From an uncultured virus (IMG/VR IMGVR_UViG_3300048590_001227) (taxonomy: Duplodnaviria; Heunggongvirae; Uroviricota; Caudoviricetes): a stretch of DNA of 64,000 bases. A model generated the notes under the pieces. That model was not told the DNA's origin. It saw only the letters and a list, made by a program, of their open reading frames with translations, and did not search any database. The stretch is from IMG/VR virus record IMGVR_UViG_3300048590_001227, one strand, 5' to 3'. Of this stretch, positions 33,962 through 57,636 are shown one piece after another. The translations under genes were made by a program, and so were the position numbers. The stretch's first letter is position 1. Each line of letters starts with the position of its first letter.

Positions 33962-34249
33962 GAAAACTCCATAATTTGACAAAAAGGTTCCATTTGGCTG
34001 ACAATCAGCCAACAGTCGATTAAAAAGTTCATCTTTTTTTGGTTGTGCGCGAGTCAGGTGACCCTGCTAAATAACCGAGTGCGTTCGTTCATAGGTGACG
34101 ACGAAAACCTTCCGACAATCTTTGCATGAGTGGCTTCCGGATACCGCGCATGGACCTTCCACTTCATGATAAAGAGAACAGAAGGGGCAGAAATATCCCC
34201 AGAGATTTTCCATATCGTCGTCAAGTTCTGCAAAAACTCTTTTCATCAG

Positions 34250-39261: not shown

Positions 39262-40581
39262 TCACTTTTTTTCTGCAGTGTTGTGATTTTCGCGAGATAG
39301 ATTTTCATCCAGTTTGCTTCCGGCATCTTTGTGCGCTTCTTCAAACATCTGCGCCAGGGTCTTCAGTGACGCGTATGACAAGCGAATCGGTCTTCGTTCG
39401 CGCGATTGCCAAAGCTGATCGGTCCAAGCGGCAAGCTGCAGCGTATAGTCCAAGCCTCTTTTGGAGAGCATGTCGGCTACCCAGTGATTGAGCAAACTCC
39501 AGTCGATGAATTCGTATCTGGAAGCGAAGCACTGTTGAAAATCTTTTGCGATGCTTACGACTTGCGGAGTTATTTTTGGATGATCGTCACTTTCTGAGTT
39601 GACAGTATCCTTTGCCTGACCTATCACGCGGGCGCGCGCGGATTTACTTTCCATCCATCCATTAGTAAGTATTTTCTTGTTGTCTATGAAGAATCTCAAA
39701 GTTAAAATAGATCTTGAGATCTTTAAATCCGGATCTAAACCCTCAATACCTGAAATCCTTAAATCCGGATCTCTGAGTATTCTCTTAACGCGACTCTGCG
39801 CCACCCCCCCTCCTGGCCCAGAGTCATGGTCCAGATCTGCAGCCTCATGAGTTCCGCCATTCTCCCCGAACCGATCTTGAAATTCGACAATGCGACGCTT
39901 CAGTCGCGCGAAGATGTTTTGGTAGCGTTCGAGCTCATCCCAGGTTGTTCGCCCGGGCAGTCGGCTTAGCTTTGCAAGATCTCGTTGAACCTGTCTGGAA
40001 ACCTTTCCAATGCGCTTAAACTCGACCGGGCGATCCTCAGTCCTCAATTCATCGATCGCGGCAGCAGCGATCTTTTCCGCGTGGAGAACGAAAGCTGTGG
40101 GCGCAATGAAGTACGTATTATTTTGTGACCCGGATGCGTGCGACTGGCCTTCGACTATTAGGATCAATCGACGATCGGCCAAGCGATTCAGGGCGCGCTG
40201 CACGGTCCTGCCATCCAGGCTCGAACGTGACGCAAGAAGTTTCAGACCAGGGCAAATTGCCACCCCATCGATCCTATACTGCTTGACCCACCCCCTATCC
40301 GCGCAAGACACGAGCACATGCAGCAGATACCGATCGAGGGCCTGCAAATCTTCAGGAAGTGCATCAAAAGCAAGGTAGTACGGCGTCGCGCAAAATGGAT
40401 CAAATCGAGAATTCTCAAGGTAGTTCTGCAAAAGTATGGACTCCCATAAAATTAATTCAAACGCGTGAGAGAACTGCAATATCGCCGAGAACGAAGAATC
40501 TTCATTGCTGCAAGGGCAGAGTGAACGTTTTTTAGAGTCTCTCTTACAAGCGTCGAAAGGGTTGGTACTCATGTGTTTCAT
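39262..40581 (-). CDS. Phage replication initiator-like protein (winged HTH)
   Basis: CPGLKLLASRSSLDGRTVQRALNRL…NTY pattern; internal direct repeats; heads the early operon. Confidence 0.7.
   Translation of the reverse strand: MKHMSTNPFDACKRDSKKRSLCPCSNEDSSFSAILQFSHAFELILWESILLQNYLENSRFDPFCATPYYLAFDALPEDLQALDRYLLHVLVSCADRGWVKQYRIDGVAICPGLKLLASRSSLDGRTVQRALNRLADRRLILIVEGQSHASGSQNNTYFIAPTAFVLHAEKIAAAAIDELRTEDRPVEFKRIGKVSRQVQRDLAKLSRLPGRTTWDELERYQNIFARLKRRIVEFQDRFGENGGTHEAADLDHDSGPGGGVAQSRVKRILRDPDLRISGIEGLDPDLKISRSILTLRFFIDNKKILTNGWMESKSARARVIGQAKDTVNSESDDHPKITPQVVSIAKDFQQCFASRYEFIDWSLLNHWVADMLSKRGLDYTLQLAAWTDQLWQSRERRPIRLSYASLKTLAQMFEEAHKDAGSKLDENLSRENHNTAEKK
39723..39772. repeat. Direct repeats inside the replication gene (candidate iterons/ori)
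   Basis: TTAAATCCGGATCT at 39723-39736 and 39759-39772, next to an AT-rich stretch. Confidence 0.55.
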
Positions 40582-40990
40582 ATGTCGTCACCGGGCTACA
40601 CATTTCTGCAAGACATCGTTGAAGTCGAGTAAGTTTTGGATGGGATTGGTAAATTCATCGTCATGATTTGAAAACGTTCCGCGGTTTGACTAAAGAGCCA
40701 ATTGGTTTGCGACAAACGACGCAAGTGCCGATGGAAAAGTGAAACCGCGATGGATCAAATCTTCGCTTTTTGTATTCCGAGATGAATAAGCGTCATCAGA
40801 TCGTCACCGCGTCCGTGCTTCCGCATGAATTTGGATTCCATGACGGATAAGACGAGAGTTGTTGGACTCCGTGACGAATAAAAAAGACGGTTGTCGTCAC
40901 CAGTCTGGTTAAACTCAAACCATGGCGAAGAATAATAAAGCGAGTCGTTTTCAAACCATTCCGATATTGAAACCGGAGCAGATGTAAACT
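40582..40990. promoter_or_regulatory. Divergent early control region with repeated CGTCA(C/T) boxes (candidate operators)
   Basis: TCGTCACC at 40585, 40801 and 40894; TCGTCAT at 40658; GCGTCAT at 40790; inverted ATGACGG at 40840 and GTGACGA at 40871. Confidence 0.5.
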
Positions 40991-41758
40991 ATGGAATCAT
41001 TCTTAGAGCATGTATCCGAAGCCATCATGAATTGGACTTCGGAACGCTCGGGCCGAACACTGAGGGGGTTGGCGATGACGCTGGGCGTTAATGAAACGAC
41101 TCTTCGTCGATTGCGTGACAAAAGTAACGAGCCAAGTTTTGAAGCGTTTGAGGCTCTTCTGCCGATCGTTGATCAGGAAATGGCACTGCAGTATGGCGAA
41201 AAGAAATGGCCAGGGAAGGTGCAACGTATAAGGCACACCTTGAAGCAGAACATGATCGCCTGCGTTCGGCTGCAGGAAATGATGATCAAAGACCAAGCCC
41301 ATTTTGTTGTGATCAATCTCTGCGCGATGCCGAAGGGTGTGAGTTTGTGCCATGTGGAAGATATCACTGGCGCGGCAGGCGTAAGGATACTCGACGAGTT
41401 GGTAGATAAACTTTTGGCGCATCGTGACATGGAGGGTCAGTTTCATCTTTTTCAAAAATTCTTTCAGATCACGGGCTTTGAGTCCTTGCTGAAACAGATT
41501 GATGCAATCCAAAAAACGGCTCCATACTTTGAAGCCAAATGGCGAGCAGCGCATGTCGTGACGAAATCATTTTCGCCTGCCGGCTATGTGAAGGCTCGGG
41601 AAGCAGAGCAGAAATTGCTAGAAGAGCTTGAGAGAATTGAGCGTATTGAAAAATATCAGGGCGATCAAATGTTTGTCCTTGGAATGATGTCGGGACTACT
41701 TAAAGGAGAACCAAGTGAGAAGGAAGATGTTTCTGTTATTGGGGATGGTGTCCAGTAG
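40991..41758 (+). CDS. HTH regulator (TIGR02147/DUF4423-like), in the repressor position
   Basis: TLRGLAMTLGVNETTLRRL HTH, central wHTH-like segment, C-terminal helix/strand; paralog at 49844..50599. Confidence 0.65.
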   Translation: MESFLEHVSEAIMNWTSERSGRTLRGLAMTLGVNETTLRRLRDKSNEPSFEAFEALLPIVDQEMALQYGEKKWPGKVQRIRHTLKQNMIACVRLQEMMIKDQAHFVVINLCAMPKGVSLCHVEDITGAAGVRILDELVDKLLAHRDMEGQFHLFQKFFQITGFESLLKQIDAIQKTAPYFEAKWRAAHVVTKSFSPAGYVKAREAEQKLLEELERIERIEKYQGDQMFVLGMMSGLLKGEPSEKEDVSVIGDGVQ

Positions 41759-42014
41759 CGCTTTCGCTGGCCAGACCAGTAGTGGTGGAGGAATTGCAGT
41801 GCGGCAGATTGCTGAAAATCTGTTTAGGTTTCCGGAAGGGCATGACTTGGGCGGGTTGAACTTGGACGACGAAATCGAAATCGAAGGTGGTGTATTTCGC
41901 GTTGTCGGCGTGAGCGCTTTGACAGGTAATATCATAATGCAGTCGGCAAGTGGCGCTAGGATCGAAATCCAGGCTGGCTCTGATTTTCCAATAGATTCGA
42001 TGCCTCAGCAATAA
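41715..42014 (+). CDS. Small secreted protein with Gly-rich motif after the signal peptide
   Basis: …SSSAFA|GQTSSGGG; overlaps the 3' end of the HTH gene. Confidence 0.75.
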   Translation: MRRKMFLLLGMVSSSAFAGQTSSGGGIAVRQIAENLFRFPEGHDLGGLNLDDEIEIEGGVFRVVGVSALTGNIIMQSASGARIEIQAGSDFPIDSMPQQ

Positions 42015-42057
42015 GGATCGTTTTTTCATTCAATATGAAGAGACAGACACTAAAATC

Positions 42058-42411
42058 ATGAGCAAAAGAATACTCTTTGTAGAAGACAATGATTCGTATC
42101 GGCAAATGATGGTCGAAATTCTGGAAGCATACGGCCATAGGGTGACACAAGCCGAGAGCGGTAGTCAGGCTTTGCAACTGATGTCCTCCGGATATACCCC
42201 TGACGTGGCAATAATTGACCTGCACATGCCGAAGATGGATGGTATTGAGCTGACCCGCGAGATTCGGAAACGTTACCTGACTCCCGTCTATCTCTGTACT
42301 GCGGACGAGAAAGCTGAGTCCCTTATTGAGGGGATCGAGTTGATTTGGGTCGTTGACAAATCTCTCGAAGGAATCCGATCGATGATTGAAGGTGTTGAGA
42401 AAGTTGTATGA
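42058..42411 (+). CDS. Stand-alone response regulator receiver (CheY-like)
   Basis: ILFVEDN, IIDLHMPKMDG, conserved T and K. Confidence 0.93.
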   Translation: MSKRILFVEDNDSYRQMMVEILEAYGHRVTQAESGSQALQLMSSGYTPDVAIIDLHMPKMDGIELTREIRKRYLTPVYLCTADEKAESLIEGIELIWVVDKSLEGIRSMIEGVEKVV

Positions 42412-42414
42412 GAA

Positions 42415-42489
42415 AAGGGCGACCAGTGGTCGCCCTTCAGTTCTACTTTCAAATGGCCCAACTGGAGAAATCTAGTTGGGTCATTTTTT
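42415..42489 (+). terminator. Tandem hairpins / intrinsic terminator
   Basis: AAGGGCGACC-AGT-GGTCGCCCTT, then AAATGGCCCAACTGGA-GAAA-TCTAGTTGGGTCATTT followed by a T run. Confidence 0.8.
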
Positions 42490-42754
42490 CTTCGGTTTTC
42501 CCTTCACCCCACGATCATGATTCAGATTGGTCAATTTCTACTGAAATTTTTTCTTACGCTGTCCTATTAAATTAAAATTTACCTTATTTATTATAGTGAC
42601 TTATGTCTATGATCACGCCGAAAGGACCTCCGAGACACTCTCGAAGCAATTTCAGCGGTTATTTGTTTTATGCCAATCCGAAAAAATTGGCTTTCGATGA
42701 TCCGCTGTGGTTAAAAGCTCAAAATGTAAAACGTTGTGTGAAAGAGAGAGCCCT

Positions 42755-44434
42755 ATGAAAGCAAGCCGACTGTTATCTCTTTTAATGTTTTTGTTTTTAT
42801 ATGCATGCTCCGACAGCCAGAGTTCGACCCTTTCGGGTGAAGGTGTTGAGCTTGAGACTGCGAGAGAATTGTTTATGAGACGCGGTGATAATCATGAAGC
42901 TTTGCTCGTGGCTAAAAACTTCATTCAAAACAAATTAGACACCGTGCCCGATGTTTATCCCAACTATATCGATCGTATGGAAGCCAGTATTCTCCTTTTT
43001 CGTCTTACCTACTATGAGGCTAAGCACTACTACGCAACCGATAAATCGACCAGGAAAAAGCTGCTTCTGGAGAACGCCGCGAACGTGGACAAGTATCTTA
43101 GTCCAGCGACGCTAGGCTGGGAACACCCAGGCTATTACTATTACAAAATGCAGTCACTTCTTGCCTACGCTGACGACGGCATCTATCTAGAGCAGCTGAG
43201 CGTTTTCTCGAAGATACTCGGGCTTATCTACGACAGCGATAAAGCGGCCGGTAGTGATATCTACGAAGGTGGTGGCATGTATCGCCTTGAAGCTGAATTT
43301 TGGTCGCGCGAATATATCCGAGGCACGCCTGGACTTGCCTATAATCCTGAGTTGTCGCTGAAACTCATAGACTACGCTATCAAAGCAGACCCCTATCCTG
43401 GTCAATATTCTGGCGACCTTTACTGTGAGAATTTTCTTCTCCGCGCGGAATACGAATACCGGGTCAGCAAAGCCGCTGCTAAGCCTTCAGTTTATGCTGC
43501 TCAGCTAGCTGAGATATTCGAACTTTATGTCGCTGATGAATTGATCCCACCTATGGATAAGATCGAAGCCGTCGAATGTATAGCGAAAGCAAAAAACTTT
43601 GCTGCGAGCAAAGGCGTAGTCATTCGTCAAATGAATGGTGACACCGAAGGACATAGTTTTGAGTTTAACGCCACCGCTTATTTCAGTTCCACCGCCTCAT
43701 ACTCAGGCAAAGTCGCACTGGAAGCCTACTGTGGAGCTTGGGACCTCATGACTCCTCCACTTCCTTTGGCTGGCAGCGCGTATTTTGACTATGATCCTTC
43801 CAAGTCTGGAAAGTCTTATGCACTTAGTCTTACGCTTTCCGGCGATAGCGTCCCTTGTGTTCCAAGGTGGCTCGCTTTCAACTCAGACAGAATTAGCGTC
43901 AGCACTTCCAACGTTGACGTGAGGTTTGTGGATTATGGTCTGACCGACGAAAAATACGCGGCAGATACCAAAAATCAGCTCGACGACACTTATTCTCAGC
44001 AGATGGCAAACTACAGTATATCCATGGCCCAGCAGGCTCTGGCGCAACCTAACATGTTCTGTAACATTCAGCAGGCCACGAAGAATCCAAGAATCGACGC
44101 TGGTTTTATTCAGAAAGTGAAATCAGACTACTACGGTGTCTTTGGCGTTCTCTTCGACGACCCTGATCATCAGTTCGCCTGTCCTCCCACGGAAACTTTG
44201 AAAGGTCAAATCAACATTTGCGTGGTGAGTCCGTCCAAGTCTACCCCTTTCTGCAACTCTTACCGCCTCTATATGCAGTCGCTTGGCTGGATTAATTCGC
44301 AGTTGGTTGAGACCAACCGACGATTGGAAAAAATTTCAAACAAGGAGTCCCAGATTTACAAGAACCTCCAAACCCTCAGTGAAAGACTGCAGGAGGAGAG
44401 CGATAACTCTGACGAAGTTCTGGGCGAAGACTGA
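42755..44434 (+). CDS. Lipoprotein with TPR-like N-terminal half and Cys-containing C-terminal half (toxin operon gene 1)
   Basis: LYAC lipobox; YEGGGMYRL…LSLKLIDYAIKADP…ENFLLRAEY TPR-like helices; C-terminal coiled coil. Confidence 0.75.
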   Translation: MKASRLLSLLMFLFLYACSDSQSSTLSGEGVELETARELFMRRGDNHEALLVAKNFIQNKLDTVPDVYPNYIDRMEASILLFRLTYYEAKHYYATDKSTRKKLLLENAANVDKYLSPATLGWEHPGYYYYKMQSLLAYADDGIYLEQLSVFSKILGLIYDSDKAAGSDIYEGGGMYRLEAEFWSREYIRGTPGLAYNPELSLKLIDYAIKADPYPGQYSGDLYCENFLLRAEYEYRVSKAAAKPSVYAAQLAEIFELYVADELIPPMDKIEAVECIAKAKNFAASKGVVIRQMNGDTEGHSFEFNATAYFSSTASYSGKVALEAYCGAWDLMTPPLPLAGSAYFDYDPSKSGKSYALSLTLSGDSVPCVPRWLAFNSDRISVSTSNVDVRFVDYGLTDEKYAADTKNQLDDTYSQQMANYSISMAQQALAQPNMFCNIQQATKNPRIDAGFIQKVKSDYYGVFGVLFDDPDHQFACPPTETLKGQINICVVSPSKSTPFCNSYRLYMQSLGWINSQLVETNRRLEKISNKESQIYKNLQTLSERLQEESDNSDEVLGED

Positions 44435-44477
44435 GGCGGTTGACGGTTGATTTAACTAAGGAGAGAGGGAAAATCAC

Positions 44478-45857
44478 ATGAAAATCAGACCAGCAGTTTT
44501 TCTTTTATTGTTTTCCACAGGGCAGTTGCTTGCGGACGCGAGCAATCAATGCCTTGTTGATCAGAGAGCAGCGAAAAATCCGTCCGAGGAAATTCTTGAT
44601 AGACTTGACGAATGTATGAAGGATAAGTCTTGCGCCCAGGAAGATAGGCAATATGTTTGTCCGTGGGCGGAAAGCAGAAGCGAGCTGCCAAGTCTTTCAG
44701 ATGACGAAAAGAAAAAAGTTGACGAGCTGTGCGAGCAATGTGAGCAAATGGAAGTCATTGCCTGCAGCTATTCACTTAATTCTGCCAATGAGAGTTTTAA
44801 CAAAGCGATAAAGGTTTTTGTTGACGACAACGACGCAGCCAAGCCTTTGATTTTTGGCTACGCTAAACCGAATCCAGTAGCCAATAATCTAAACCTCGCC
44901 GCCAACCTTAGAAAACTCATGGACGACAATGAAGTTTTCAAAACTGAACTGAAGACTCTGACAGACAAGTTGACCGCTCTTACCCAAAATATCACCAGCG
45001 AAACTATTCTGCGTGCAAACCTCAAAAAATCTCAACAGGCAACGCAGGACTTTGCTCAGAAATGGGCCGGTCTTTACAAAGACAGCGCCCAGCTCTACTA
45101 CCTTACTTCTGAGTTGCTTGATTTCATGGCAGAGTGGCAGGATCGTATGCTTGCCACGCAACATGATTCTGGCTGCTCGGCTATTAGCGGGGAAGTTGAT
45201 AAGGCTTCGGCTGCTGGCGAAGCGTTTGTCTCCCAGCTGGAATCAATCACCACAGCGCTTGAAAACCTCAGCTTTTCAAAACGTCTGGAGCTGGCAGGAA
45301 ATTTTTCTGAAAATGCAATTAAGCTCAGCTACCTGGCTGCCAGCAGAAAAACGGTTGAAGAACTCCATGCTTCGATTGGTGCAGTGCTTGACCTTGATAG
45401 AAAGGTTATGGAGTCAAACCTCTGGTGGATTGAGGTCAGTCGCGGTGGCCTCGCGAGCGGTCTTCACACAAGCTATTACCAATATAGAAAGCCTCTTGAA
45501 ATTCTCGTAACCGCTGTTGGCGAAGGTCAGAAGTTTATCGACCAGGTCAGAGCCATTAAAGGCCTGTCTGCTTCCGCTATGACGGCTGCAGTCAATGGAC
45601 TTCAGGGCCGCCAGAACCTTTTGCAAAGTGACATTACTTGGCTCAAAACACGCGGCTGGAAAGGCCAGTATAAATCTCAGGTGGAAACCGTTGACTCCTG
45701 GCTGAAATCTCTGCCCCGCAAAGATTCGACCTGCGGAAAGCTTCTCGCAGCCTACCAAAATCAGACGAAAAGCTTTCTGGGTGAGGACTTTGAAGTCTTT
45801 GAAGCTGAGATCGAGCCAAAATTCATTCAGGCTATTCAAGCCTGCGAAGCGGAGTAA
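44478..45857 (+). CDS. Secreted helical/coiled-coil protein with Cys-rich N-terminus (toxin operon gene 2)
   Basis: Signal peptide (…QLLA|D), Cys cluster, long amphipathic helices; ends 3 nt before the toxin start. Confidence 0.8.
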   Translation: MKIRPAVFLLLFSTGQLLADASNQCLVDQRAAKNPSEEILDRLDECMKDKSCAQEDRQYVCPWAESRSELPSLSDDEKKKVDELCEQCEQMEVIACSYSLNSANESFNKAIKVFVDDNDAAKPLIFGYAKPNPVANNLNLAANLRKLMDDNEVFKTELKTLTDKLTALTQNITSETILRANLKKSQQATQDFAQKWAGLYKDSAQLYYLTSELLDFMAEWQDRMLATQHDSGCSAISGEVDKASAAGEAFVSQLESITTALENLSFSKRLELAGNFSENAIKLSYLAASRKTVEELHASIGAVLDLDRKVMESNLWWIEVSRGGLASGLHTSYYQYRKPLEILVTAVGEGQKFIDQVRAIKGLSASAMTAAVNGLQGRQNLLQSDITWLKTRGWKGQYKSQVETVDSWLKSLPRKDSTCGKLLAAYQNQTKSFLGEDFEVFEAEIEPKFIQAIQACEAE

Positions 45858-45860
45858 GAC

Positions 45861-48353
45861 ATGAAGAACCTGATATCAACGCTTCTTACACTTTCCGTCT
45901 TTACATCCTGCCATAAAGTAGATGAAAGCGCGGCCACACTGAAAGGCATTGTTGGCGAGGACAATTCAGCCAAAGCTAAAGACAAAGCGGAATTCGCCGA
46001 CCTTCTTACTAGACAGACTGATATAGGTCTTGTTCTTAATTGCAACGGGGTGAAGCTCTCGGATGGTCGGTTTCTGACCGCGGCACATTGCCTGAAGCCA
46101 CATGCTGGTAAAGACGTTCAGCTACTCGGCAGAAAGATAGTCACAAACCTTCATCAGGTTGGCAGTTTCGATTTGGTTGTAGGCCAGTTGATAGGCGGAG
46201 CTGCGCCGTCGGAGAGTATAAGACTCTTTTCTGGGACGATTTCTTCAACCGTTCAGCTCGAAGCCAACTGGTTTGACTATAAAACCGGTGAATGGCGTGT
46301 CAGCCGGGGTGAAGGCACTGTTGAAGGTGCTTTCATTAAGCACAATCTTGATACCAATCCAGGCTCTTCGGGCTCGGCCCTCTACACAGTGGACAGCTCG
46401 GGGCAAAAGCTGCTCGTTGGCGTTCATATTGGGTTTGCTAAGGAAGCTAATACCAACGTCGGTGTTCTGCTGTCAAAGGCCTTGGACGCAAATTTCAGCC
46501 CCTCCTCGGCTGAGCTCGTGAAATACGAGGCGGAAGATACTCACGTTACCTACGTCTGTAGCCGAGCCACAGGTGAATGCTACCGGGTGCAGGAGTCCGA
46601 TAACGGAAGTGATGAAGGCGGTAACGGGGGAAGCAGCGGTGGGGACGGTGGCAATCCGTCCGGCCCAAGTGACGGCGCTCCAGGTGGTGGAGGCGACGGT
46701 GGAAGCGTTGGCGGCGGTGGTGATTCAGGAGGAGGAGATAGCGGTGGTATCGGTGACGGTGGAGACAGCGGTGGCGACGGTGATTACGGCGAAGGCGGCG
46801 ACGGCAACGACGGTGGTGACTACGGCGGCGGCGAAGGTGGGGTCGATGGCGGCTCTGACGGCGGAAGCAGTGGAGGCATTCCTGGAGTTGTCATAATTCC
46901 CGAAGTGGTTCCAGGCGGAAGTGCAGGTCATGGCGGCAGCAGTAAGGGTGGTGCAGCAGCCAAGGATTGCTTCAACTGCGACCGGCTCAGCTGGGAGCTG
47001 AAAAATAACGACCTCTTTAAACCCGAATGTGAGACGCCAGGCGTCGCGCCCAACCTCAAGCCCATGCTCAAAGGGACCAAGATTGAGTTGGTGGACGGAG
47101 CGCCACTTCCAGAATTTCGTTTTAACCCTAGTGACGACAAATTCACGCAGTCTCTCAAGGATTTTGCGGAAAAGTTGAAGGAAGCGACCAAGTGGAAAAC
47201 TACGCCTGAGCTGGCTGATAAAATGGCCAAGCTCTCTAAAGAAGAGCTGGAGCGCCTGCAGAAGTGGATGGAGAGCGTCGTCAAGAACCTCGACGATTAC
47301 TACGCCCTTCTAGTCGCCTCCATGAAGTCCGACCAGCTGACAGCGCCTGACGAAATTCCCGAGGTGGATGTCTCAAAAGAGGGTATTGATGCCGCTAAGC
47401 GCTATCTTGATGCAGTTAAAAAACAGATAGCCCAGAATCCAGACCAGTATCTGGAAGCGCGCCTGTCGCTGGCAGATTCGAGCGCCAGGGCTCTTGATAT
47501 TGCCACCGAGGCCCTGGAGAGCGGGGATAAGGAAACAGCCGAGGCGGCCATTTCGATGGGGCGTGCACTTGCTGACGCTTCGCTCGGGTGGGTTCCAGGA
47601 GTCGGTTTTGCCAAAGATTTGGTCGAGGCGACCACCGGCTACAACTACATTACAAAGCAGGAACTCACCCGTTTCGAGGTGGTTTCAGCCTGGGTAGGTG
47701 TATTCAGCGCCGGGTATGGCAGTAAAATACTCGCCACTGGAAAAGCCATTAAGCTCGTGGCCGTGGCTGGGCGCATTGCCAAGACCAGTAAACTCGGCGC
47801 TAAGCTTGAGCAATACGGGGTTCGCGCCAAGGAAATCTATGACGTTGCGTCGAAGGCCGGGATAAAGGACAGAAAGAGGATCGGCGAAGTTTTTGACGCA
47901 GTTAAACGCCGTCTGCCAAGCGCCAAGTTCGAGGAGCTGGAAGAGGAAGTCGCAAATGCGTTCAAACGCTACGAAGGTCTTCCTCTTATAAATGGCAAAA
48001 AGCCCAGGAATGGTCACTATGCAGGCAACACTTACTATGAAGGCCTTAGTGACAAGCTTAAGGGGAAATATCCAGACGGCGTCAAATTCAACGAAAAGGG
48101 TTTCCCCGACTTCTCGCCTTACGCTATGAAGTTTGAGAACGGCAACTCGTCGGTAGTGATTCAGGCCGGTCTTTCGCCAAAGGCTGATTTTGCGGCAGCG
48201 AACAAAGCGGCAGGACTCGCGAAAAAGCCAAAAGGATTTACTTGGCATCACCACGAGGACACTGGTGTTATGCAGCTCATTCCAACCGACCTGCATAAAG
48301 CTGTTGGACACACAGGCGGTTGGGTAATCTGGTCAGGAGGTTTGAAGCTATGA
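45861..48353 (+). CDS. Polymorphic toxin: lipoprotein signal + trypsin-like serine protease + Gly/Asp linker + PT-TG pre-toxin domain + WHH/HNH nuclease
   Basis: FTSC lipobox; TAAHC / FDLV / DTNPGSSGS triad; LGWVPGVGFAKDLVEATTGYNYIT; GFPDF…WHHHED…MQLIP…H…HTGG. Confidence 0.9.
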   Translation: MKNLISTLLTLSVFTSCHKVDESAATLKGIVGEDNSAKAKDKAEFADLLTRQTDIGLVLNCNGVKLSDGRFLTAAHCLKPHAGKDVQLLGRKIVTNLHQVGSFDLVVGQLIGGAAPSESIRLFSGTISSTVQLEANWFDYKTGEWRVSRGEGTVEGAFIKHNLDTNPGSSGSALYTVDSSGQKLLVGVHIGFAKEANTNVGVLLSKALDANFSPSSAELVKYEAEDTHVTYVCSRATGECYRVQESDNGSDEGGNGGSSGGDGGNPSGPSDGAPGGGGDGGSVGGGGDSGGGDSGGIGDGGDSGGDGDYGEGGDGNDGGDYGGGEGGVDGGSDGGSSGGIPGVVIIPEVVPGGSAGHGGSSKGGAAAKDCFNCDRLSWELKNNDLFKPECETPGVAPNLKPMLKGTKIELVDGAPLPEFRFNPSDDKFTQSLKDFAEKLKEATKWKTTPELADKMAKLSKEELERLQKWMESVVKNLDDYYALLVASMKSDQLTAPDEIPEVDVSKEGIDAAKRYLDAVKKQIAQNPDQYLEARLSLADSSARALDIATEALESGDKETAEAAISMGRALADASLGWVPGVGFAKDLVEATTGYNYITKQELTRFEVVSAWVGVFSAGYGSKILATGKAIKLVAVAGRIAKTSKLGAKLEQYGVRAKEIYDVASKAGIKDRKRIGEVFDAVKRRLPSAKFEELEEEVANAFKRYEGLPLINGKKPRNGHYAGNTYYEGLSDKLKGKYPDGVKFNEKGFPDFSPYAMKFENGNSSVVIQAGLSPKADFAAANKAAGLAKKPKGFTWHHHEDTGVMQLIPTDLHKAVGHTGGWVIWSGGLKL
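46603..46960 (+). repeat. Low-complexity Gly/Asp/Ser-rich linker within the toxin gene
   Basis: Runs of GGN codons encoding GGDGG/GGDSGG units. Confidence 0.85.
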
Positions 48354-48859
48354 TAAATCCGGTAGTTCTGGAAAATCTTGAAAAGAGCGAAGACAAGGCG
48401 ACGGAAAAAGCGCTGAAGAGGTTTGAGAAAAAAATCAAGGCGCAGCTGCCAAAGGACTACCGTGAGTTTCTGCTTCAGACCAATGGCGGCTATACGGAAA
48501 AGGTTTTATCGTACCCATTCACCCTGAATGGAAAACCAAGCGCCAGCAATATCGACTCTTTTTACGGTCTGTCTGAAGAAGAAGGCGAAGGTTCACTGAT
48601 TGAAAACTTTGATACCTTCCGCGACAAGGACGAGCCGAGAATGCTCGATTACATGATCCCAATTGGCGAGGACGAGGGCGGCAATCAAATCGTTCTTCTT
48701 CTCAATAAGAAGGAATATGGACATGTCTACTTCTGGGACCATGAGAGCGAAATTGATTTTGAAAACATGGAAGAAGGCGAGAGCGATAGAGACAACTGTC
48801 ATCCGATAGCCAAATCGTTCACGGAGTTTTTAAACCTTCTGAAAGTAGACGACGAATAA
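48350..48859 (+). CDS. SMI1/KNR4 (SUKH) immunity protein
   Basis: LPKDYREFLLQTNGG, IPIGEDEGGN, VYFWDHE and IAKSFTEFL motifs; ATGA overlap with the toxin stop. Confidence 0.93.
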   Translation: MINPVVLENLEKSEDKATEKALKRFEKKIKAQLPKDYREFLLQTNGGYTEKVLSYPFTLNGKPSASNIDSFYGLSEEEGEGSLIENFDTFRDKDEPRMLDYMIPIGEDEGGNQIVLLLNKKEYGHVYFWDHESEIDFENMEEGESDRDNCHPIAKSFTEFLNLLKVDDE

Positions 48860-49049
48860 TCAAATGTAAAAGTCGGGAGTAGGTTCTCTCGACTGTCTTC
48901 GTGCTTCGATAACAAAAAGAAAGAATGAAAAGATTGCTGGCTGGGAAATCAGTCCTGGTTCGTCTTTTTCCTTGATTTTGAGATTGGGCCTGGACTGAAG
49001 TATAACCACTTCTCGGGGAGAGGTCAGAATGTTGACCTCTTCTTCTTTT

Positions 49050-49361
49050 TTAGTCCACTTCCTTATAACCAACGGTTTCGTTATGGTCTTTCACTGGTGG
49101 GACAGTGCCGTCACTCAGTTTTGTGACTTTTCTTTTTTTCAGATCGGCCACCACTTTCTCAATGAACCAATCGCTCTTTACTTCGTCCCGGTTCAGAACG
49201 CGAATGTTTTCAACATTGCCATTCTTGTCAAGATCGTAGCGAAGTTTCAGTTCGGCGGCAGGCTTTGGAAGATTGGCCAGCTTGTTTTCGCTCACGGGCT
49301 TTTCAGTAGTAGCGCAGGAAAAGGCAGTCATGGACAAAGCAAGTAAGAGGTAAAGTTTCAT
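49050..49361 (-). CDS. Small lipoprotein with TonB C-terminal-like segment
   Basis: AFSC lipobox; LRYDLDKNGNVENIRVL. Confidence 0.65.
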   Translation of the reverse strand: MKLYLLLALSMTAFSCATTEKPVSENKLANLPKPAAELKLRYDLDKNGNVENIRVLNRDEVKSDWFIEKVVADLKKRKVTKLSDGTVPPVKDHNETVGYKEVD

Positions 49362-49442: not shown

Positions 49443-49838
49443 TTATTGTGCGAAATTCGTTAGTCTTCCGGCGCGGATAGTGGAAAGACGGTCAATCAGT
49501 TCAAACGACCCGAGGCTGTCGCCGTCCTTGACTTTATAGCTTTTCCGGATCAGATTTTGTCCTTCAACCGAATCGACGTTCTGACCAGCTTTCAACTCAA
49601 TCTCCGCATTATTTAAAAGTGGAGTATCAGAGGTGAGCGTGAAATTTACAGGGAGTTCAGTTTTGCTAAGCAACATGGAGTTATCATTTTCGCCTCTGAT
49701 CAATGCTAGGCTTTGACCAGAGCTCATGAGCATCGACATCTCGTCCTGGAGTGCTGGAGGCACACCGCCGCTGCCGCCGCTACCAGCGTAGAGAACTACT
49801 GAAGTCAGGGTTGTCGCCAGCAGGATAAGTTTTTTCAT
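49443..49838 (-). CDS. Small secreted protein with Gly-rich motif after the signal peptide
   Basis: …VVLYA|GSGGSGGVPPA; starts 5 nt after the HTH gene stop. Confidence 0.8.
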   Translation of the reverse strand: MKKLILLATTLTSVVLYAGSGGSGGVPPALQDEMSMLMSSGQSLALIRGENDNSMLLSKTELPVNFTLTSDTPLLNNAEIELKAGQNVDSVEGQNLIRKSYKVKDGDSLGSFELIDRLSTIRAGRLTNFAQ

Positions 49839-49843: not shown

Positions 49844-50599
49844 TTACCCCTCGATTTCGTCTTGCTTAAAATTTATTGGGCTGACCACAATAGTGGAACA
49901 CATTACCTGCCGACCTTTCAAAGACTCGTTTTTCTCAATCTCTTGAAGAGTATCGGCTAACTTAGCATGAGCTTCATAGTATTTTTTCATGCCTTCATCG
50001 TTCAGACCTGCCACCCAGTTTCTCATATAGCTGCCCGGGTTGGCTTTGGCATAAAACTGAATGTTGTGTTCCCCAACCTTTGCCAAAAGGTCCGTGTCCC
50101 AAAAATTTGCCTCAGCAATATTCGATTTAAAGGTCCCGTCGTCCTTTTGTTCGATTATCTTGCGCTGAAGTAGTTCGTCAAGTTCTCTCAGTCCTGGTTG
50201 TCCAGCTTCATTCAGAACGTCTTTTCTCTCAGCTCCCAGAACTTCGGTTGCAACACTATAGACTCGATAGCGGTCAAAATCCGAGAACGCGAAGTCTGCC
50301 AATTCATAAAGTTCATCGCTGGAATCTTCCGCTTCAGGGCCTTTTTCCAGCAGGTCTTTGGTTTCTGCAGGGTAGTGTTGCCCCAGCGTTGCTAAATAAG
50401 TCTGAGGTTCTATATGTTTCAGAAGTTTTTTCGCGTGAAAAAAACTGACGTTCTTCAGCTTATGTTTCGCGCTTGTCAGGCGATACACTACCATGTAAGG
50501 AACACCAATATCTTTCGCAAACCTCTTCGTAACAAGTTTTTCGCTCATGATATGTCGTTTGACAAGTTCACCGAGATAAGGAATTATTGGGTGTGCCAT
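49844..50599 (-). CDS. HTH regulator (TIGR02147/DUF4423-like), paralog of 40991..41758
   Basis: KRFAKDIGVPYMVVYRL HTH; AGQPGLRELDELL versus TGAAGVRILDELV; similar C-terminus. Confidence 0.65.
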   Translation of the reverse strand: MAHPIIPYLGELVKRHIMSEKLVTKRFAKDIGVPYMVVYRLTSAKHKLKNVSFFHAKKLLKHIEPQTYLATLGQHYPAETKDLLEKGPEAEDSSDELYELADFAFSDFDRYRVYSVATEVLGAERKDVLNEAGQPGLRELDELLQRKIIEQKDDGTFKSNIAEANFWDTDLLAKVGEHNIQFYAKANPGSYMRNWVAGLNDEGMKKYYEAHAKLADTLQEIEKNESLKGRQVMCSTIVVSPINFKQDEIEG

Positions 50600-50982
50600 C
50601 TTGGCCGCTCCAACACGAAATGATTGCTCTGAGTGACTCCAACTGTTGAGGTCGATAAGCGATGCTTGTTGAAAATGCAAAAGAAAAAAACAGCTGCGAG
50701 AAAAATTAAACGATTGTCCGGACATCGTGATTCAGTCTGGTTAATCATACCAGAGGCAAAAGAAAGAGAAGGCAAGGCGTTGGAGGCGGTATAAGTCTTC
50801 AGTAAAATTGAAGATTATCGAAAACGGGGGGAGGTTTCTAAGCGGCAATTAGAGTTATAGAGACCATGCAATCCGCCAGCTCCAAAGACTCTGCTTCCAG
50901 TCCCCAGGTTGGGGAAATCTTCGGCAGATGGAGCCAGAATTCCTATCGAAGCTGGAATGTCGTTGATCTCACCGAGCGGTCT

Positions 50983-51795
50983 TCATCGGGCCGTTTTTTG
51001 TGATTTCAGCATGCCTTCGCGATAGTCTCCGGCGTACATTCGCACAAGTGGATCTTCGCTGCTTACCATTTCAAATTCAGGTAACTGAATCACGAGTTTT
51101 TTCGCCGCTTCGCGATCAACTGCAATTTTGTGACACTGGACTGAGCTGAACCATTTTTCTCGGCAATAGGAGTCGCCGACAGCGACAACAGCGTGTTCAA
51201 ACGCGGAACCCATTACTGTTCCTCGATCTGGCTGGTATATGACTTTGGGCTTAGAGAAGATTATCTGTCCGTAGGAAATGGAAGCCAGACCCTTGCGGAG
51301 TCCACCGGATAAATCGTCCACACATGAATACCACGACGCCACCAGTTCTTTGATCGTTTGTCTTTGATTTTCAAAGTCCATACGAATCGGATGCCCAATG
51401 AGAATCACGGCAGCCGGAATCGATCCCCATAGCCCCATATCGTAAGCCTTGGAATCCTGAAATTGACCGGTCTTGATATTGTTTCGCAGCTTGAATAGGG
51501 CAAAAGTCTCCTCCAAAGGCCCGGGATATGGTTGGGTTGAACCATCCTCTCTGTTCATTGTTACGAGAGCGAGCATAAATCCATTCGCTGTTCCTTCTCC
51601 GATTCCGCGGTTGAAGTTTGTGAAGGCTTCATACAGCGAATGCACCTCCTCTCGACCAGATCGATATTCTGGAAGTCGCCATATTCTCGCAAAGATTTTA
51701 GTAATCAATACCAGTACGAGCGCGCCCATGGCGATCATAGCGATCCATTGAATCCATTCCATCGGCAAAATTAGCTCCGGGATGAGAGTTGCCAA
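50983..51795 (-). CDS. Membrane-anchored protein, possible degenerate class III cyclase-like domain
   Basis: N-terminal TM; SISYGQII…TVMGSAFEHA…IAVDREA pattern; overlaps the receiver gene. Confidence 0.55.
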   Translation of the reverse strand: MATLIPELILPMEWIQWIAMIAMGALVLVLITKIFARIWRLPEYRSGREEVHSLYEAFTNFNRGIGEGTANGFMLALVTMNREDGSTQPYPGPLEETFALFKLRNNIKTGQFQDSKAYDMGLWGSIPAAVILIGHPIRMDFENQRQTIKELVASWYSCVDDLSGGLRKGLASISYGQIIFSKPKVIYQPDRGTVMGSAFEHAVVAVGDSYCREKWFSSVQCHKIAVDREAAKKLVIQLPEFEMVSSEDPLVRMYAGDYREGMLKSQKTAR

Positions 51796-52124
51796 AGCAT
51801 GGCCTGGATTCCTTCGGTCGTTTTATCCACAAGCACGGCGTTGGAAATGTTCTTCAATAGCGCATGTGCTTTTTCGTCTGAGGTGCATAAGATTATCGGT
51901 ACAGACAGCTTCTTACGAATGACCGTGGCGAGTTCGATTCCGTTCATAGTAGGCATGTTGAAATCAGTCACAACATAATCCGGGGGGAATCCGGCTGATA
52001 GGATATCCAAAGCTATTTTACCATTTTCCGCTTGGCTAACAGTATGGCCGAGCTCTTCAAAAACTTCGGCAAGGATTTCACGGAAAGGCTGATTGTCATC
52101 TACCAGCAAGATATTTTGAGGCAT
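51771..52124 (-). CDS. Stand-alone response regulator receiver, paralog of 42058..42411
   Basis: ILLVDDN, VTDFNMPTMNG; shared LCTxDEKA and VDKxxEGI. Confidence 0.92.
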   Translation of the reverse strand: MPQNILLVDDNQPFREILAEVFEELGHTVSQAENGKIALDILSAGFPPDYVVTDFNMPTMNGIELATVIRKKLSVPIILCTSDEKAHALLKNISNAVLVDKTTEGIQAMLWQLSSRS

Positions 52125-52332
52125 TTCGTACTCCAGATTTGGCAATGCATTTATAATCTCACATAGCCTCATATATCCTAATGATAGCTCAAATAGCCAA
52201 ATTATTGCGCCCCCCCTGAGAAAAAGCCCCGGACGTCGTTTTTAGCATAAGTGTTTATATTGATTGACTTATGTGGTATAGTATCGGCAAGTGACCAAAA
52301 ATCTGGATTGATTTTGATAGGTTAGGGGAAGC

Positions 52333-52839
52333 ATGGGAAGAACCAAGAACAACACCGCGCCGTTGGCAAACGCTACCGAGGAAAGACTCCGAGCAACCCC
52401 GTTTACGAACGTGGGCGAGCTGGATGCTGAAACCAAGGCTATTCGCTTGGCTGTCTGGCGTCGGTTCGCCGAAGCTAAGATAATAAATGAATTGATGACC
52501 AAGCCCGAGCTGCGTTTCGTTGTCGAGGAATGGCGAGAGGGCCTGATTGCGTCCTTTGGAATCAACAGCAAGGATCGAATCTTCAAAGTTTATAGCGAGG
52601 GGAAAGGGCTGCGTTTGGAAGTCAACAAGGCCCTAACGGAAAAACTTGAAGCCCATGAAGCGAAATTGATTGAAAGCATAGTTAGAGCAGGGATAGAAGG
52701 ATTCGGGCTCTTATATCTCAAGGGCAAGAGTATTGTTGGCGACGTGATAATCAGCCCAGAAAAGGCGAGCCCTTCTGGAAAAATCGATCAAAAGCCTGCG
52801 AAGCGCCCAAAGAGCCGAGCGAAGAAAAATTCGAGATGA
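52333..52839 (+). CDS. Hypothetical protein
   Basis: 168 aa ORF with AGGGG RBS and a basic C-terminus. Confidence 0.65.
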   Translation: MGRTKNNTAPLANATEERLRATPFTNVGELDAETKAIRLAVWRRFAEAKIINELMTKPELRFVVEEWREGLIASFGINSKDRIFKVYSEGKGLRLEVNKALTEKLEAHEAKLIESIVRAGIEGFGLLYLKGKSIVGDVIISPEKASPSGKIDQKPAKRPKSRAKKNSR

Positions 52840-52856
52840 ATGAGCAAATGGTATCG

Positions 52857-53786
52857 TCAACACAGCCGGGCAGTTGATGCCTCCAGAAAGTGCCGCTGGT
52901 ATAGCTTTAGGCTGATCGCGAAATTGCAGCGCGATACCGTCTCACGGAGAATTTCGAGCCTCTGTCGGCTGACTTCGGATATCTCAGTCGCCAGCCGGGT
53001 GTTTATCGCGAACAGTAGGTCCCTGTCGTCTTTCGGCAGTTCTCGTCCTGAGGCTTTTTGGTGCAGGTGCTGTGCGATATCAGGTTGTAAAATATTTCCC
53101 AATCCTCTATCGCCTGTGACTTCGCGAGGTAGGCAGAGGACGTTGATGTTCCTGGCGATACGGAGCGCCTGGGGATCGTCAGAAATTCGATCTATTTTGT
53201 CCAGAAAGTGCGAAGCGGGTTGGGCGAGGGTCATGAATTTCCCTGCGAATTCCTCGCGCTCGCTGGGACTGACGGCGAGTCCAGTGACATTTTCCCAGTG
53301 CGAAACGACGATTGCAACCTCTTGCTCACATGTCCGATTTCCCTCTTGCAGCAACTCAATAGGCGAATCACTGGATCGACCGCCCGCAGGTTTCTCTGCG
53401 GAACTACCGACCACCGGGAACATTCCGAAATAGGCATCGAACGCCTTTGTCGTGAGCAGGTATTCGTTGGCTCCCTGCTGGACTTTGCCGCTCGCGTTTG
53501 TGAAGAACACAGGTCTGACAATCAAATATCCCTTGCCTTCAAGAGCCTTCAGTTTACGTCGTACTGTCGAGACGCTCATCTTTGTTGCGCGGAAGATCTC
53601 GGGAATGGAGGTCGAAACAGGGACGTTGATAACCCCTTTACCAAGCGGCAAAAGCGACCCGATATGCGTCAATATGCTGTGTTCATGGGTGTCTATATCT
53701 GTGAGTGCATCGAAAGCTCGAAGGTAGGGTCCAGACTCGAATATGTGCTGATCGAAGAGTTGAAAAGCATGCTGAAGTGACATCAT
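52857..53786 (-). CDS. Second winged-HTH replication-initiator-like protein
   Basis: SIPEIFRATKMSVSTVRRKLKALEGKGYL…NEY pattern. Confidence 0.7.
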   Translation of the reverse strand: MMSLQHAFQLFDQHIFESGPYLRAFDALTDIDTHEHSILTHIGSLLPLGKGVINVPVSTSIPEIFRATKMSVSTVRRKLKALEGKGYLIVRPVFFTNASGKVQQGANEYLLTTKAFDAYFGMFPVVGSSAEKPAGGRSSDSPIELLQEGNRTCEQEVAIVVSHWENVTGLAVSPSEREEFAGKFMTLAQPASHFLDKIDRISDDPQALRIARNINVLCLPREVTGDRGLGNILQPDIAQHLHQKASGRELPKDDRDLLFAINTRLATEISEVSRQRLEILRETVSRCNFAISLKLYQRHFLEASTARLC

Positions 53787-55666: not shown

Positions 55667-55693
55667 CAGGTTCAAATCCTGCCCCCGCTACCA
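55667..55693 (+). other. att core: 3' fragment of initiator tRNA-Met (T arm + acceptor strand + CCA)
   Basis: CAGGTTCAAATCCTGCCCCCGCTACCA; the sequence upstream is not tRNA-like; lies between two integrase genes. Confidence 0.85.
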
Positions 55694-55743
55694 ACTCATC
55701 TTTCTGATTTCCCTCAGATAATTATAGTTTGTAGCTTTTAGAC

Positions 55744-55804: not shown

Positions 55805-57157
55805 ATGAGCAGCCGAAGTATCGCTTATACAAACGATTTAAGCGAGCGCAGAGCTGTGACTACCCTGAAAATCGACCCGCCCGAAAATGCGACGGACATC
55901 CGACCGTGGTACGTGCACGAGGACAAGACCATCAAGCCTCTTGGCATCGGCATCTCACGCTGGTATCGCGACGCAACCACCGGCAAGCAAAAGAGACAGC
56001 GCTTACCAACCAAGTATATCCGCGAGTTGGTGAAAGGGGACGAGGACGCCAGAAACCTTGTCCTTCGCCTGAATGGTAAAGACCCCAAAGAAGAGGCTGC
56101 GCGCCTCCGATATCAAGAACGCGTAGCGTGGATCTCTCCTGAACTTCTGCGTGCATACGAAAGCAAGGTCCGCAACAACTACACATCGGAAAAAGATTTC
56201 TCCACAGTCATGAACTACCTGCATCGGTACGTCCTGGACTTTTTTGTTAATCGCTTGAACGAGCCAGACGTCAGGATGTGGAAAGCTCGCCAAGACCTTT
56301 GGGGTACATACCTCCTTAACAAGGACGTGGCCGAAGACGATCCGCATAGAATCTTGGAGCCTGGGAAACTCTTTTCTAAGAAGGTCCTCAAGTACATTAT
56401 CAATGAAGCAAATCGCTTTCTGCGTTTCGTGCATAACCAAATGCCGTTGGAAGTTCCATATATCAAGTTAGAGCCTCTCGATAAAATGGCGCTTGTTAAC
56501 GCAGACGCTAAACGCATCCAGGTCAATGGTCGTAAACATCCCGGCGTCTACATCCCCCCAGCAAAGTTAACCAAGATTATGAAGCATCTTAAAGAAATCG
56601 CCGAGGCTCAGCCTTGGGCGAAGGCGGCATTGATTGCTTATTACTACGGGCTTCGAACCGCTGAGACTGTGGCTCTTGAGACCCAAAACATTAAGTCAGG
56701 CTATCTCTTGGTAGAGTCACAGTTCGTGTCCTGGGAGTTTGATGAGGAAGGCGAAGAGGACATGCAGGCTGTAAAGCATACTAGGTCGGTTAAGGACCGC
56801 GAGCAGCGAAAGGTACCTCACTGGATAAGCAAACCTAAAGAAACCTATGAACTCGTGACGTCAATCAACAAAGCCCGATTTACAGCCGAGTGGGCGTCAG
56901 ACCAGTTTACCGAGTTAACCCGAGAATTGTTCAAAGACGAGGGTATTATTTACCACCTTAAGGACCTACGCAAGACCTGGGTAACCAACATGCTCAAGAA
57001 GCAGAACCATGAGCAGGTTCGTCTGGCTGCGGGTCACTCGGATATTAAAACGACTTTAGGGCATTATGTCGAGGACGGGCGCGAAATGGATGACGAGATT
57101 TACTTGCCTGGGCAAGATGACGACGACGGCGGCCCCGACGTTGATCAGGTCGGCTGA
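55805..57157 (+). CDS. Tyrosine recombinase / integrase
   Basis: YGLRTAE, KDLRKT and AGHSDIKTTLGHY catalytic motifs; adjacent to att. Confidence 0.92.
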   Translation: MSSRSIAYTNDLSERRAVTTLKIDPPENATDIRPWYVHEDKTIKPLGIGISRWYRDATTGKQKRQRLPTKYIRELVKGDEDARNLVLRLNGKDPKEEAARLRYQERVAWISPELLRAYESKVRNNYTSEKDFSTVMNYLHRYVLDFFVNRLNEPDVRMWKARQDLWGTYLLNKDVAEDDPHRILEPGKLFSKKVLKYIINEANRFLRFVHNQMPLEVPYIKLEPLDKMALVNADAKRIQVNGRKHPGVYIPPAKLTKIMKHLKEIAEAQPWAKAALIAYYYGLRTAETVALETQNIKSGYLLVESQFVSWEFDEEGEEDMQAVKHTRSVKDREQRKVPHWISKPKETYELVTSINKARFTAEWASDQFTELTRELFKDEGIIYHLKDLRKTWVTNMLKKQNHEQVRLAAGHSDIKTTLGHYVEDGREMDDEIYLPGQDDDDGGPDVDQVG

Positions 57158-57219
57158 CCTTCATTCGTGATTCATCCCAGGACAGCATTCTGGGTATCAT
57201 AAACATAGGAGACCAAAGC

Positions 57220-57450
57220 ATGTCGAAGTTAACAGAAGAACAGAGGCAGCAGATTAAAGCTGCGGAGAAGCCGCAGGCGCAGTTGGCTAAAGAGTTTGGG
57301 GTGAGCGCGGTCACGATCGCCAAGATCAAGAGTAGCGGCCAACCTAAACCGACGCCCAGCAGTATAGAGCTTACGGTGGATGGAGACTGGGTGACCGTAA
57401 GGCTGCCCAAGAAGGCCCTGACCAAGAAACTGCTTGCTGACCTCCTTTAA
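57220..57450 (+). CDS. Small HTH DNA-binding protein
   Basis: QAQLAKEFGVSAVTIAKIK; AGGAG RBS. Confidence 0.8.
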   Translation: MSKLTEEQRQQIKAAEKPQAQLAKEFGVSAVTIAKIKSSGQPKPTPSSIELTVDGDWVTVRLPKKALTKKLLADLL

Positions 57451-57636
57451 TCTGCTCGACTGCCTCAAGGATGAGGCGTCCAATCGAAACATTTCCCCAC
57501 GGTTCTATATTCAGCACATACGTACAACTCGTATGTATAGGTCGTATGTACGTTCAGTGCGCCTTGTTGTGCGCATGAAGTTCGTTTTGCTTTTGGCCGA
57601 CAAGAAGGAGGCGTAACAGGTCTTAGGGGGAGTGGC

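Follow-up and report, generated by a model that had tools for sequence, protein, structure and literature searches.

Introduction

Sec-dependent polymorphic toxins can hold in-built releasing peptidases, as listed in Table 1 of Zhang et al. 2012 (PMC3482391, accessible text). In the same text, MafA/MafB/MafI of Neisseria, MicroscillaN and APD1/APD2 are described as having a signal peptide alone, a lineage-restricted N-terminus and a polymorphic tip, with APD1/2 following a lipobox and a lipoprotein gene lying upstream of the toxin in MafAB. Here we analyse a toxin operon in which a gene for a predicted lipoprotein lies upstream of the toxin gene as well, at positions 42755-48859 of a 64,000-nt stretch of DNA from the uncultured virus IMGVR_UViG_3300048590_001227 (the window, to which all coordinates refer). 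Its four open reading frames (ORFs), all on the + strand, are called g1 to g4 in order, g3 being the toxin gene and g4 the immunity gene.

The SitBAI systems of Myxococcus, in the available text of PMC8546572, encode toxins which, like g3, have a lipobox, a family-specific N-terminal part and a C-terminal nuclease and which, as in our operon, are followed by an immunity gene and directly preceded by one or more accessory genes. S8-Ntox35 of S. aureus is, like g3, a Sec-exported polymorphic toxin whose locus has its own serine peptidase, and this secreted toxin is activated by protease (PMC13556192, accessible part). In addition, a 2026 Pandoomain survey (PMC13483458) records diderm PT-TG toxins that have no trafficking domain and whose delivery it calls unknown; the 'PT-TG toxin' group of that survey, like g3, joins PT-TG to a toxin domain, lacks a trafficking domain and is found in diderms.

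Taken together, the data presented below tilt slightly towards reading the operon as a Sec-dependent polymorphic toxin/immunity module that a tRNA-associated prophage carries in its accessory region and that would provide a self-released lipoprotein DNase and a SUKH immunity protein. The carrier is probably a bacterium of the Oligoflexia/Bdellovibrionota. What is new is the fusion of a lipobox, an S1 protease, a long linker and PT-TG in one small family, accompanied by two orphan exported partners.

Organization of the operon

The operon consists of the following genes.

42755-44434, + strand: g1, a 559-aa predicted lipoprotein with lipobox LYAC (Cys18), matching no known family
44478-45857, + strand: g2, 459 aa with a signal-peptide-like N-terminal leader, matching no known family
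45861-48353, + strand: g3 (whole gene), an 830-aa candidate lipoprotein polymorphic toxin
48350-48859, + strand: g4, a SUKH-1 (SMI1_KNR4) immunity protein

These genes are tightly spaced, as an earlier reading of the sequence (hereafter the original prediction) had pointed out. Specifically, an RBS (ribosome-binding site) accompanies the start of g1; g1 and g2 are separated by 43 nt, with a strong Shine-Dalgarno sequence (AAGGAGAGAGGG) upstream of g2; g2 and g3 are only 3 nt apart, with a GGAG RBS inside the 3' end of g2; and g3 and g4 overlap by 4 nt (ATGA), with GGAGG upstream of the overlap. No terminator was called between the operon genes by a terminator scan. The 3-nt g2-g3 spacing, the RBS within g2 and the lack of an intervening terminator suggest co-expression, and translation of g2 and g3 is probably coupled, judging from the nucleotides around this junction. 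The products of g1, g2 and g3 all look Sec-exported, in agreement with the original prediction: inspected by eye, the leaders end at ...FLYAC, ...LLA-DA and ...VFTSC, respectively, and all 9 aligned relatives, without exception, have the lipobox Cys17 of g3.

Domain architecture of the g3 toxin

Along g3, the following parts were distinguished.

45861-45911, + strand: signal peptide and lipobox, residues 1-17 (...VFTSC, by eye)
45993-46505, + strand: predicted chymotrypsin-fold serine protease, residues ~45-215, with His76, Asp104 and Ser170
46596-46955, + strand: Gly/Asp/Ser-rich low-complexity linker of ~120 residues, residues ~246-365
46956-47375, + strand: family-specific region, residues 366-505, with CxxC and ...NLDDYYA...
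47376-47975, + strand: extended PT-TG helical module, residues 506-705
47979-48353, + strand: tip, a WHH / Colicin-DNase type HNH nuclease by Pfam, residues ~707-830, plus the stop codon

The original prediction had recognised the PT-TG domain, the WHH nuclease tip and a translationally coupled SUKH gene, all of which are borne out by Pfam matches and by the ATGA overlap. Its description of g3 was incomplete in one respect: the trypsin-like protease domain, which emerges from AlphaFold2 (AF2), Foldseek and Pfam, had been missed. The AF2 model of this domain, obtained from a 10-sequence alignment, has a predicted local distance difference test (pLDDT) value of 79. By Foldseek comparison with the PDB, the model has the double beta-barrel fold of S1 peptidases, with at least 500 matches at E<=0.001; SplB, SplA, V8 and Esp are the best (E ~1e-9, with template modelling scores by target of 0.62-0.65 for the best ones), and exfoliative toxin is also among the S1B matches. 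His76 lies in a TAAHC motif, Asp104 in DL and Ser170 in PGSSGS, and this triad is kept in all the aligned relatives except the partial sequence P0013.

At the level of sequence profiles, the isolated protease domain sits at the edge of detection, with Pfam Trypsin_2 at E 5.9e-6 (27.5 bits against a cut-off of 27.6) and Trypsin at 20.6 bits (cut-off 20.6). A phmmer search of the PDB with the N-terminal 245 residues of g3 gave no match, and when the family profile was compared with the PDB, the protease matches were below significance. In conclusion, residues ~45-215 of g3 form, according to the model, an S1B-like serine protease with an intact triad, for which catalysis is predicted.

Downstream of the protease domain, the linker shows composition windows with more than 70% G/S/D/P/N/E; relatives are poorly conserved in this stretch and its length varies. 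Conservation of residues 366-505 is confined to the close family, and AF2 confidence is low there. The following module reaches pLDDT values of about 85-97 over residues 506-705 and includes the Pfam PT-TG match (PF14449, residues 570-635, E 6e-9, 36.2 bits against a cut-off of 23.5). The tip is matched both by Colicin-DNase (PF12639, E 2.4e-14, 54.4 bits, cut-off 25) and by WHH (PF14414, residues 788-824, E 2e-14, 53.5 bits, cut-off 25.1); W795-H796-H797-H798 is kept among the WHH-tipped relatives, and the profile matched Rhs C-terminal toxins in the PDB (8bd1, E 9e-8). Known trafficking domains had been described as missing from the toxin, and indeed no RHS, VgrG, PAAR, LXG, FHA, MuF or MafB-N match was found with Pfam at E<=0.1.

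The toxin family and its variable tips

A word-based search covering 5.8 billion protein clusters returned one full-length relative of g3, P0004, with 38% identity. Exhaustive HMMER searching with residues 1-700 of g3 retrieved 240 proteins at E<=0.001, and the whole N-terminal architecture is common to eight clusters (P0004, P0005, which has six members, P0006, P0007, P0008, P0009, P0013 and P0041/P0161). Labels are available for five of the eight (three Pseudobdellovibrionaceae, one Oligoflexus and one Pseudobacteriovorax), so that the named members of the new family are labelled Oligoflexia or Pseudobdellovibrionaceae. WHH tips are found on the window toxin, P0004, P0005 and P0007, and LHH tips on P0008 and P0041/P0161; the sequences of P0006, P0009 and P0013 stop short. 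This switching between WHH and LHH behind one N-terminal architecture makes the g3 family polymorphic in the Zhang/Aravind sense. As the original prediction had proposed, g3 belongs, on the evidence of these alignments, to a distinct lipoprotein toxin family with variable tips.

The PT-TG stretch (residues ~490-690) is all that g3 has in common with the bulk of the 240 HMMER hits, which comprise more than 200 further proteins. The tips carried by these PT-TG-only relatives are diverse (ParB-like, Col/Pyo DNase, ribonuclease, Ntox35, Cytotoxic and EndoU). Of the 141 hits with an initial Met, at least 46 have a lipobox by a home-made rule, and many others have ordinary signal peptides; the lipobox count among relatives of the PT-TG module suggests lipid anchoring as a common entry into the PT-TG delivery route. 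As a separate observation, the ~200-residue extended PT-TG module recurs in P0014-P0154, proteins of ~500-600 aa with lipobox or signal-peptide N-termini and many tips.

Genomic scans added no further N-terminal relative of g3. None came from a scan of genome contigs, and a scan of metagenome contigs gave 80 loci, all matching the tip alone (residues ~657-829). Likewise, the N-terminal part had no match in the 237 genomes of the family, or the 401 of the phylum, of G002, a genome to which a match of the efflux pump in a Pseudobdellovibrionaceae-labelled record had led (this NCBI family includes Micavibrio); the genomes of this group are suggested to be Pseudomonadota and are therefore a poor test for such relatives. 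In the phylum of the genomes G640/G641 (401 genomes), the g3 query met just a generic S1 protease (L184), and five further starting points in the genome collection yielded none.

Immunity gene and tip cassette

The g4 product matches Pfam SMI1_KNR4 with E 2e-25. Together with the ATGA overlap, this places a cognate immunity gene immediately downstream of the toxin gene, the arrangement of polymorphic toxin systems. Among tip-bearing loci from other sources, 65 of 103 encode a g4-like SUKH protein, and in the loci inspected the g4-like gene starts directly behind the tip. The same tip ends an RHS protein (L083) and a DUF4157-like protein (L097) elsewhere, and in the scanned IMG/VR ORFs it is found on LXG proteins in five of seven. 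Judging from these sequence comparisons, the tip and SUKH are a widespread cassette moving together.

A toxin directed against prey or foreign species, and not against non-lysogenic relatives, with an immunity protein that merely protects the producer, would suit toxin relatives labelled Pseudobdellovibrionaceae, Oligoflexus and Pseudobacteriovorax, and S8-Ntox35 acts between genera (PMC13556192, accessible part). We nevertheless consider such targeting quite unlikely here: tip switching with cognate immunity is the signature of competition among relatives (PMC3482391, accessible text).

The partner genes g1 and g2

Homologue searches, productive for the N-terminal half of g3 (eight clusters), returned none for g1 and g2. 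Neither protein matched anything in Pfam (E<=10), PHROGs or NCBIfam, nor any PDB sequence, and the word-based search of protein clusters returned self-hits alone. By tblastn, no relative was found in 50,697 phage records or in the 182 loci gathered, and IMG/VR scans likewise gave none. When g1 and g2 were compared by hhalign with each other, and each with the toxin family, the alignments were limited to the signal peptide. A candidate g1 match in the G640/G641 phylum (401 genomes, including a record labelled Polyangiaceae) was rejected as a spurious CheW-receiver hit. These blanks are weak, since the word-based search caught only one of the g3 relatives found with HMMER.

The original prediction had described g1 as a lipoprotein with a TPR-like and a Cys domain. 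The lipobox stands, by eye, and there are 8 Cys beyond the lipobox Cys; the TPR-like label goes back to ESM Atlas neighbours of residues 22-290 (TatT/RMD1-3 TPR-like, score 0.78), which are below the bar and serve as a lead only. For g2, ESM Atlas gave no usable match.

One explanation of these orphans is that g1 and g2 are unrelated prophage cargo, devoted for example to surface modification or exclusion, beside a self-sufficient toxin/immunity pair. It agrees with their orphan status in every search, with a region rich in unannotated small exported proteins (e.g., 49050-49361 and 49443-49838) and with the many PT-TG lipoprotein toxins that show no hint of g1/g2 partners. The g2-g3 junction, with its close spacing, internal RBS and uninterrupted transcription unit as far as called terminators tell, speaks against it, and word searches that missed most g3 relatives could miss g1/g2 relatives too. 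We hold this explanation to be rather doubtful.

The central idea of the original prediction was a different one: g1, as a TPR-like outer-membrane lipoprotein, and the secreted g2 might form a dedicated display or translocation apparatus from which the anchored toxin is delivered on contact, be it by SitB/TraC-like outer-membrane exchange, as a MafA-anchored MafB-like toxin, or as an umbrella-like particle docked on the trypsin-like domain. The tight four-gene spacing and the 3-nt g2-g3 gap favour such an apparatus, and upstream accessory genes are usual in SitBAI (PMC8546572) and MafAB (PMC3482391), as far as the accessible texts of both go. Myxococcus TraC, a 604-aa outer-membrane lipoprotein in which TPRs are combined with a C-terminal domain that is uncharacterised (PMC8546572, accessible text), resembles g1 by description alone. 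In addition, the trypsin-like domain of UmbA holds UmbB in its cleft (PMC11062931), and chain 8w20_G is among the fold matches of the g3 protease (E 2.2e-8). The g3 triad is intact, however, unlike that of a pure docking module; no g1 or g2 relative was found against eight clusters related to g3, and nothing real was found for g1 in the 401 genomes of the phylum with the Polyangiaceae-labelled record. A dedicated apparatus therefore appears unlikely to us.

A bolder version, which we regard as very improbable, would join the N-terminal half of g3 with g1 and g2 into a phage-transmitted, Sec-exported, outer-membrane-anchored delivery device of diderms, with the trypsin-like domain as a docking hub or contact release switch. 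If true, this device would be the missing route for many diderm PT-TG toxins which have no trafficking domain and are often lipoproteins. In our main reading, g1 and g2 are putative helpers that would most likely assist the toxin, the operon structure being what argues for the link.

Prophage setting and flanking regions

As noted in the original prediction, the operon lies beside prophage genes. A tailed-phage structural, lysis and recombination set, comprising tail, capsid, portal, terminase, lysis and RecT genes, occupies 145-38793, and window positions 3-19565 are identical to an IMG/VR provirus record. The operon comes after a putative early region (39262-42411); beyond it, at 49844-53786, a second, diverged regulatory module is found, inverted with respect to the first. 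The receiver proteins of the two regulatory modules are 45% identical (E 6e-40), and their 255/293-aa and 439/309-aa protein pairs are only weakly alike. The signals flanking the operon, and a possible border of the element, are as follows.

42413-42486, + strand: two hairpins after the response-regulator gene, 5' of the operon, one called and one seen by eye
48939-48960 and 49015-49044, + strand: terminator-like hairpins 3' of g4, facing a convergent gene (terminator scan)
55669-55693, + strand: tRNA 3'-end-like fragment (T-arm, acceptor, CCA), 25 nt, by eye, single copy in the window

The double terminator announced upstream of the operon stood in part. The hairpin at 42451-42486 plus its T-run was called terminator-like, whereas the GC hairpin at ~42413-42437 was seen by eye only, and the total of the terminator scan is not above chance (13 versus 10.6 +/- 3.4 in shuffles). 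No sigma-70-like promoter was called across 42487-42754. Two small exported proteins, encoded on the - strand at 49050-49361 (103 aa, lipobox-like AFSC) and 49443-49838 (131 aa, signal-peptide-like leader), converge on the operon end; neither has a family match.

The tRNA-like fragment was called as a tRNA neither by ARAGORN nor by Rfam, and an integrase gene (55805-57157) starts 110 nt beyond it. It is possible, judging from its sequence, that the fragment is an attachment (att) remnant marking the right end of the operon-bearing element; it may also be an att remnant between two tandem elements. Contigs from four public runs of four studies match 39.0-55.7 kb, including the operon, with zero differences in the listed pieces. 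They are of low depth, one run bearing the label sediment metagenome and the rest those of coded organisms, and no contig of these four runs covers 56118-58000. Contigs of runs X6, X7 and X9 stop or depart from the window at 55667-55697. Part of the operon's words is present in 20 runs of 12 studies, and the carrier seems to be widespread or a frequent passenger in the data of other organisms. In our view, the operon is part of a tRNA-associated mobile element that also contains the phage genes and whose borders are putative.

Further features of the phage region were recorded. At 22423-30467 (+ strand), between the terminase-side phage genes and the lysis and recombination genes, lie a CusC/CusB/CusA-like resistance-nodulation-division efflux system (OEP, HlyD, ACR_tran) and a heavy-metal P-type ATPase, apparently metal-resistance cargo inside the prophage or splitting it; the best relatives of the efflux pump show 60-68% identity and are spread across many phyla. 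The leftmost phage gene (145-1626) codes for a probable tail fibre of 493 aa in which collagen triple-helix repeats are recognised (Pfam E 8e-29), and its DNA contains a 54-nt repeat family. An OMP_b-brl outer-membrane beta-barrel protein (33344-34012, - strand, E 2.7e-11) is encoded among the late/lysis genes.

Discussion

The data depict a scenario in which g3 would be made as a five-part lipoprotein pro-toxin, consisting of a lipid anchor, an S1B-like protease, a linker, a helical pre-toxin part (the family-specific region plus the extended PT-TG module) and a DNase tip. After Sec export and lipidation, this pro-toxin would be retained at the outer membrane, where its protease would cut the toxin in cis or between neighbouring molecules and thereby free PT-TG with the DNase. 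The freed portion would enter related cells without g4 and degrade their DNA, while the cytoplasmic SUKH protein g4 would block the DNase in the producer. Through the loss of DNA in relatives lacking g4, carriers of the element are proposed to outcompete non-carriers. The exported and co-expressed g1 and g2 proteins would act as helpers in display, stabilisation or uptake. We infer export, anchoring, self-processing, target range and the roles of g1 and g2; self-cleavage of g3, specifically, would follow the precedents in PMC3482391 and PMC13556192 by analogy.

Several points weigh against a self-released, prophage-borne lipoprotein DNase. Regarding the toxin, the signal peptides and lipoboxes of g1 to g3 were judged by eye, without a predictor; self-cleavage is an analogy, no cleavage site having been identified in g3; and the trypsin-like domain of umbrella toxins is a docking module, not an enzyme (PMC11062931). 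Nothing in the PDB matched the fold of the PT-TG module model at E<=0.001, and a DNase freed in this way would still have a diderm envelope to cross. Since no relatives of g1 and g2 were found, their tie to the toxin comes down to gene order. Regarding the element, IMG/VR calls only 3-19565 provirus, no att repeats were found in the window, and the second regulatory module sits between the operon and the att-like site. An IMG/VR scan yielded 15 loci with tips only and no N-terminal relative of g3, so that carriage by phages may not extend to the toxin family as a whole. Finally, no RNA run containing the operon is listed.

As to the delivery route, which had been presented as unrecognised, this wording proves too strong. 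Sec-exported toxins described in 2012 (PMC3482391) and SitBAI (PMC8546572) precede it, and the 2012 description already comprises N-termini specific to lineages, lipoboxes, peptidases built into the toxin and, with MafA, a lipoprotein gene upstream. All together, the observation behind the original prediction is confirmed and its interpretation partly supported. The architecture itself has less precedent: in the accessible text of Zhang et al. 2012 (PMC3482391), 'trypsin' is not named and S1 is absent from the processing proteases in the Sec-dependent row of Table 1. Our literature search found no paper joining polymorphic toxin, lipobox and trypsin-like, although supplements may list such architectures, and in the Oligoflexia/Bdellovibrionota literature searched no mention of 'polymorphic toxin' was found. 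In addition, the locus shows a toxin/immunity cassette riding in a prophage accessory region.

Comparison with known systems

With toxins of the type VI and type VII secretion systems, contact-dependent inhibition, Rhs and MuF toxins, g3 shares none of the diagnostic domains looked for (PAAR, VgrG, LXG, WXG, TPS/FHA, RHS and MuF; Pfam, E<=0.1). Colicin and S-pyocin DNases resemble g3/g4 in having an HNH DNase tip that is preceded by a disordered, Gly-rich segment and is encoded in close linkage with an immunity gene. However, SUKH immunity is not of the colicin Im type, Sec export plus a lipid anchor stands in place of a lysis protein, and no colicin receptor or translocation domain was found in g3 with Pfam.

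The umbrella toxins UmbA/B/C of Streptomyces likewise derive from a secreted multi-gene polymorphic toxin locus with a trypsin-like domain, and UmbA (8w20) is a fold match of the g3 protease. In g1 to g3, Pfam detected no ALF repeats, lectin domains or repeat families, and no UmbA or UmbB relatives were found. Here, moreover, it is the toxin that carries the trypsin-like domain, the triad of which is intact. S8-Ntox35 relies on a separate S8 subtilisin in a monoderm, whereas g3, from a presumed diderm, has its S1 domain on the toxin polypeptide and lacks the BetaH domain, as far as the accessible part of PMC13556192 allows the comparison.

With respect to MafAB, MafB-N (DUF1020) has no Pfam match in g3 at E<=0.1, and at our locus the toxin itself is the predicted lipoprotein, with a protease. 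As for SitA, g3 combines a lipoprotein leader (by eye), a C-terminal nuclease and a downstream immunity gene, as SitA does. Compared by description, g3 differs in having a protease domain and PT-TG, the accessible text of PMC8546572 never mentioning 'pre-toxin'; any likeness of g1 or g2 to SitB or TraC is putative, that of g1 to TraC being one of descriptions.

With regard to the 'PT-TG toxin' group, the main text of PMC13483458 never names lipoprotein, trypsin or protease, and to this group g3 adds a lipobox and an S1 protease. In conclusion, the locus offers a concrete, testable PT-TG case, with a predicted lipid anchor, an in-built S1 protease, a long flexible linker and two co-expressed exported orphans.

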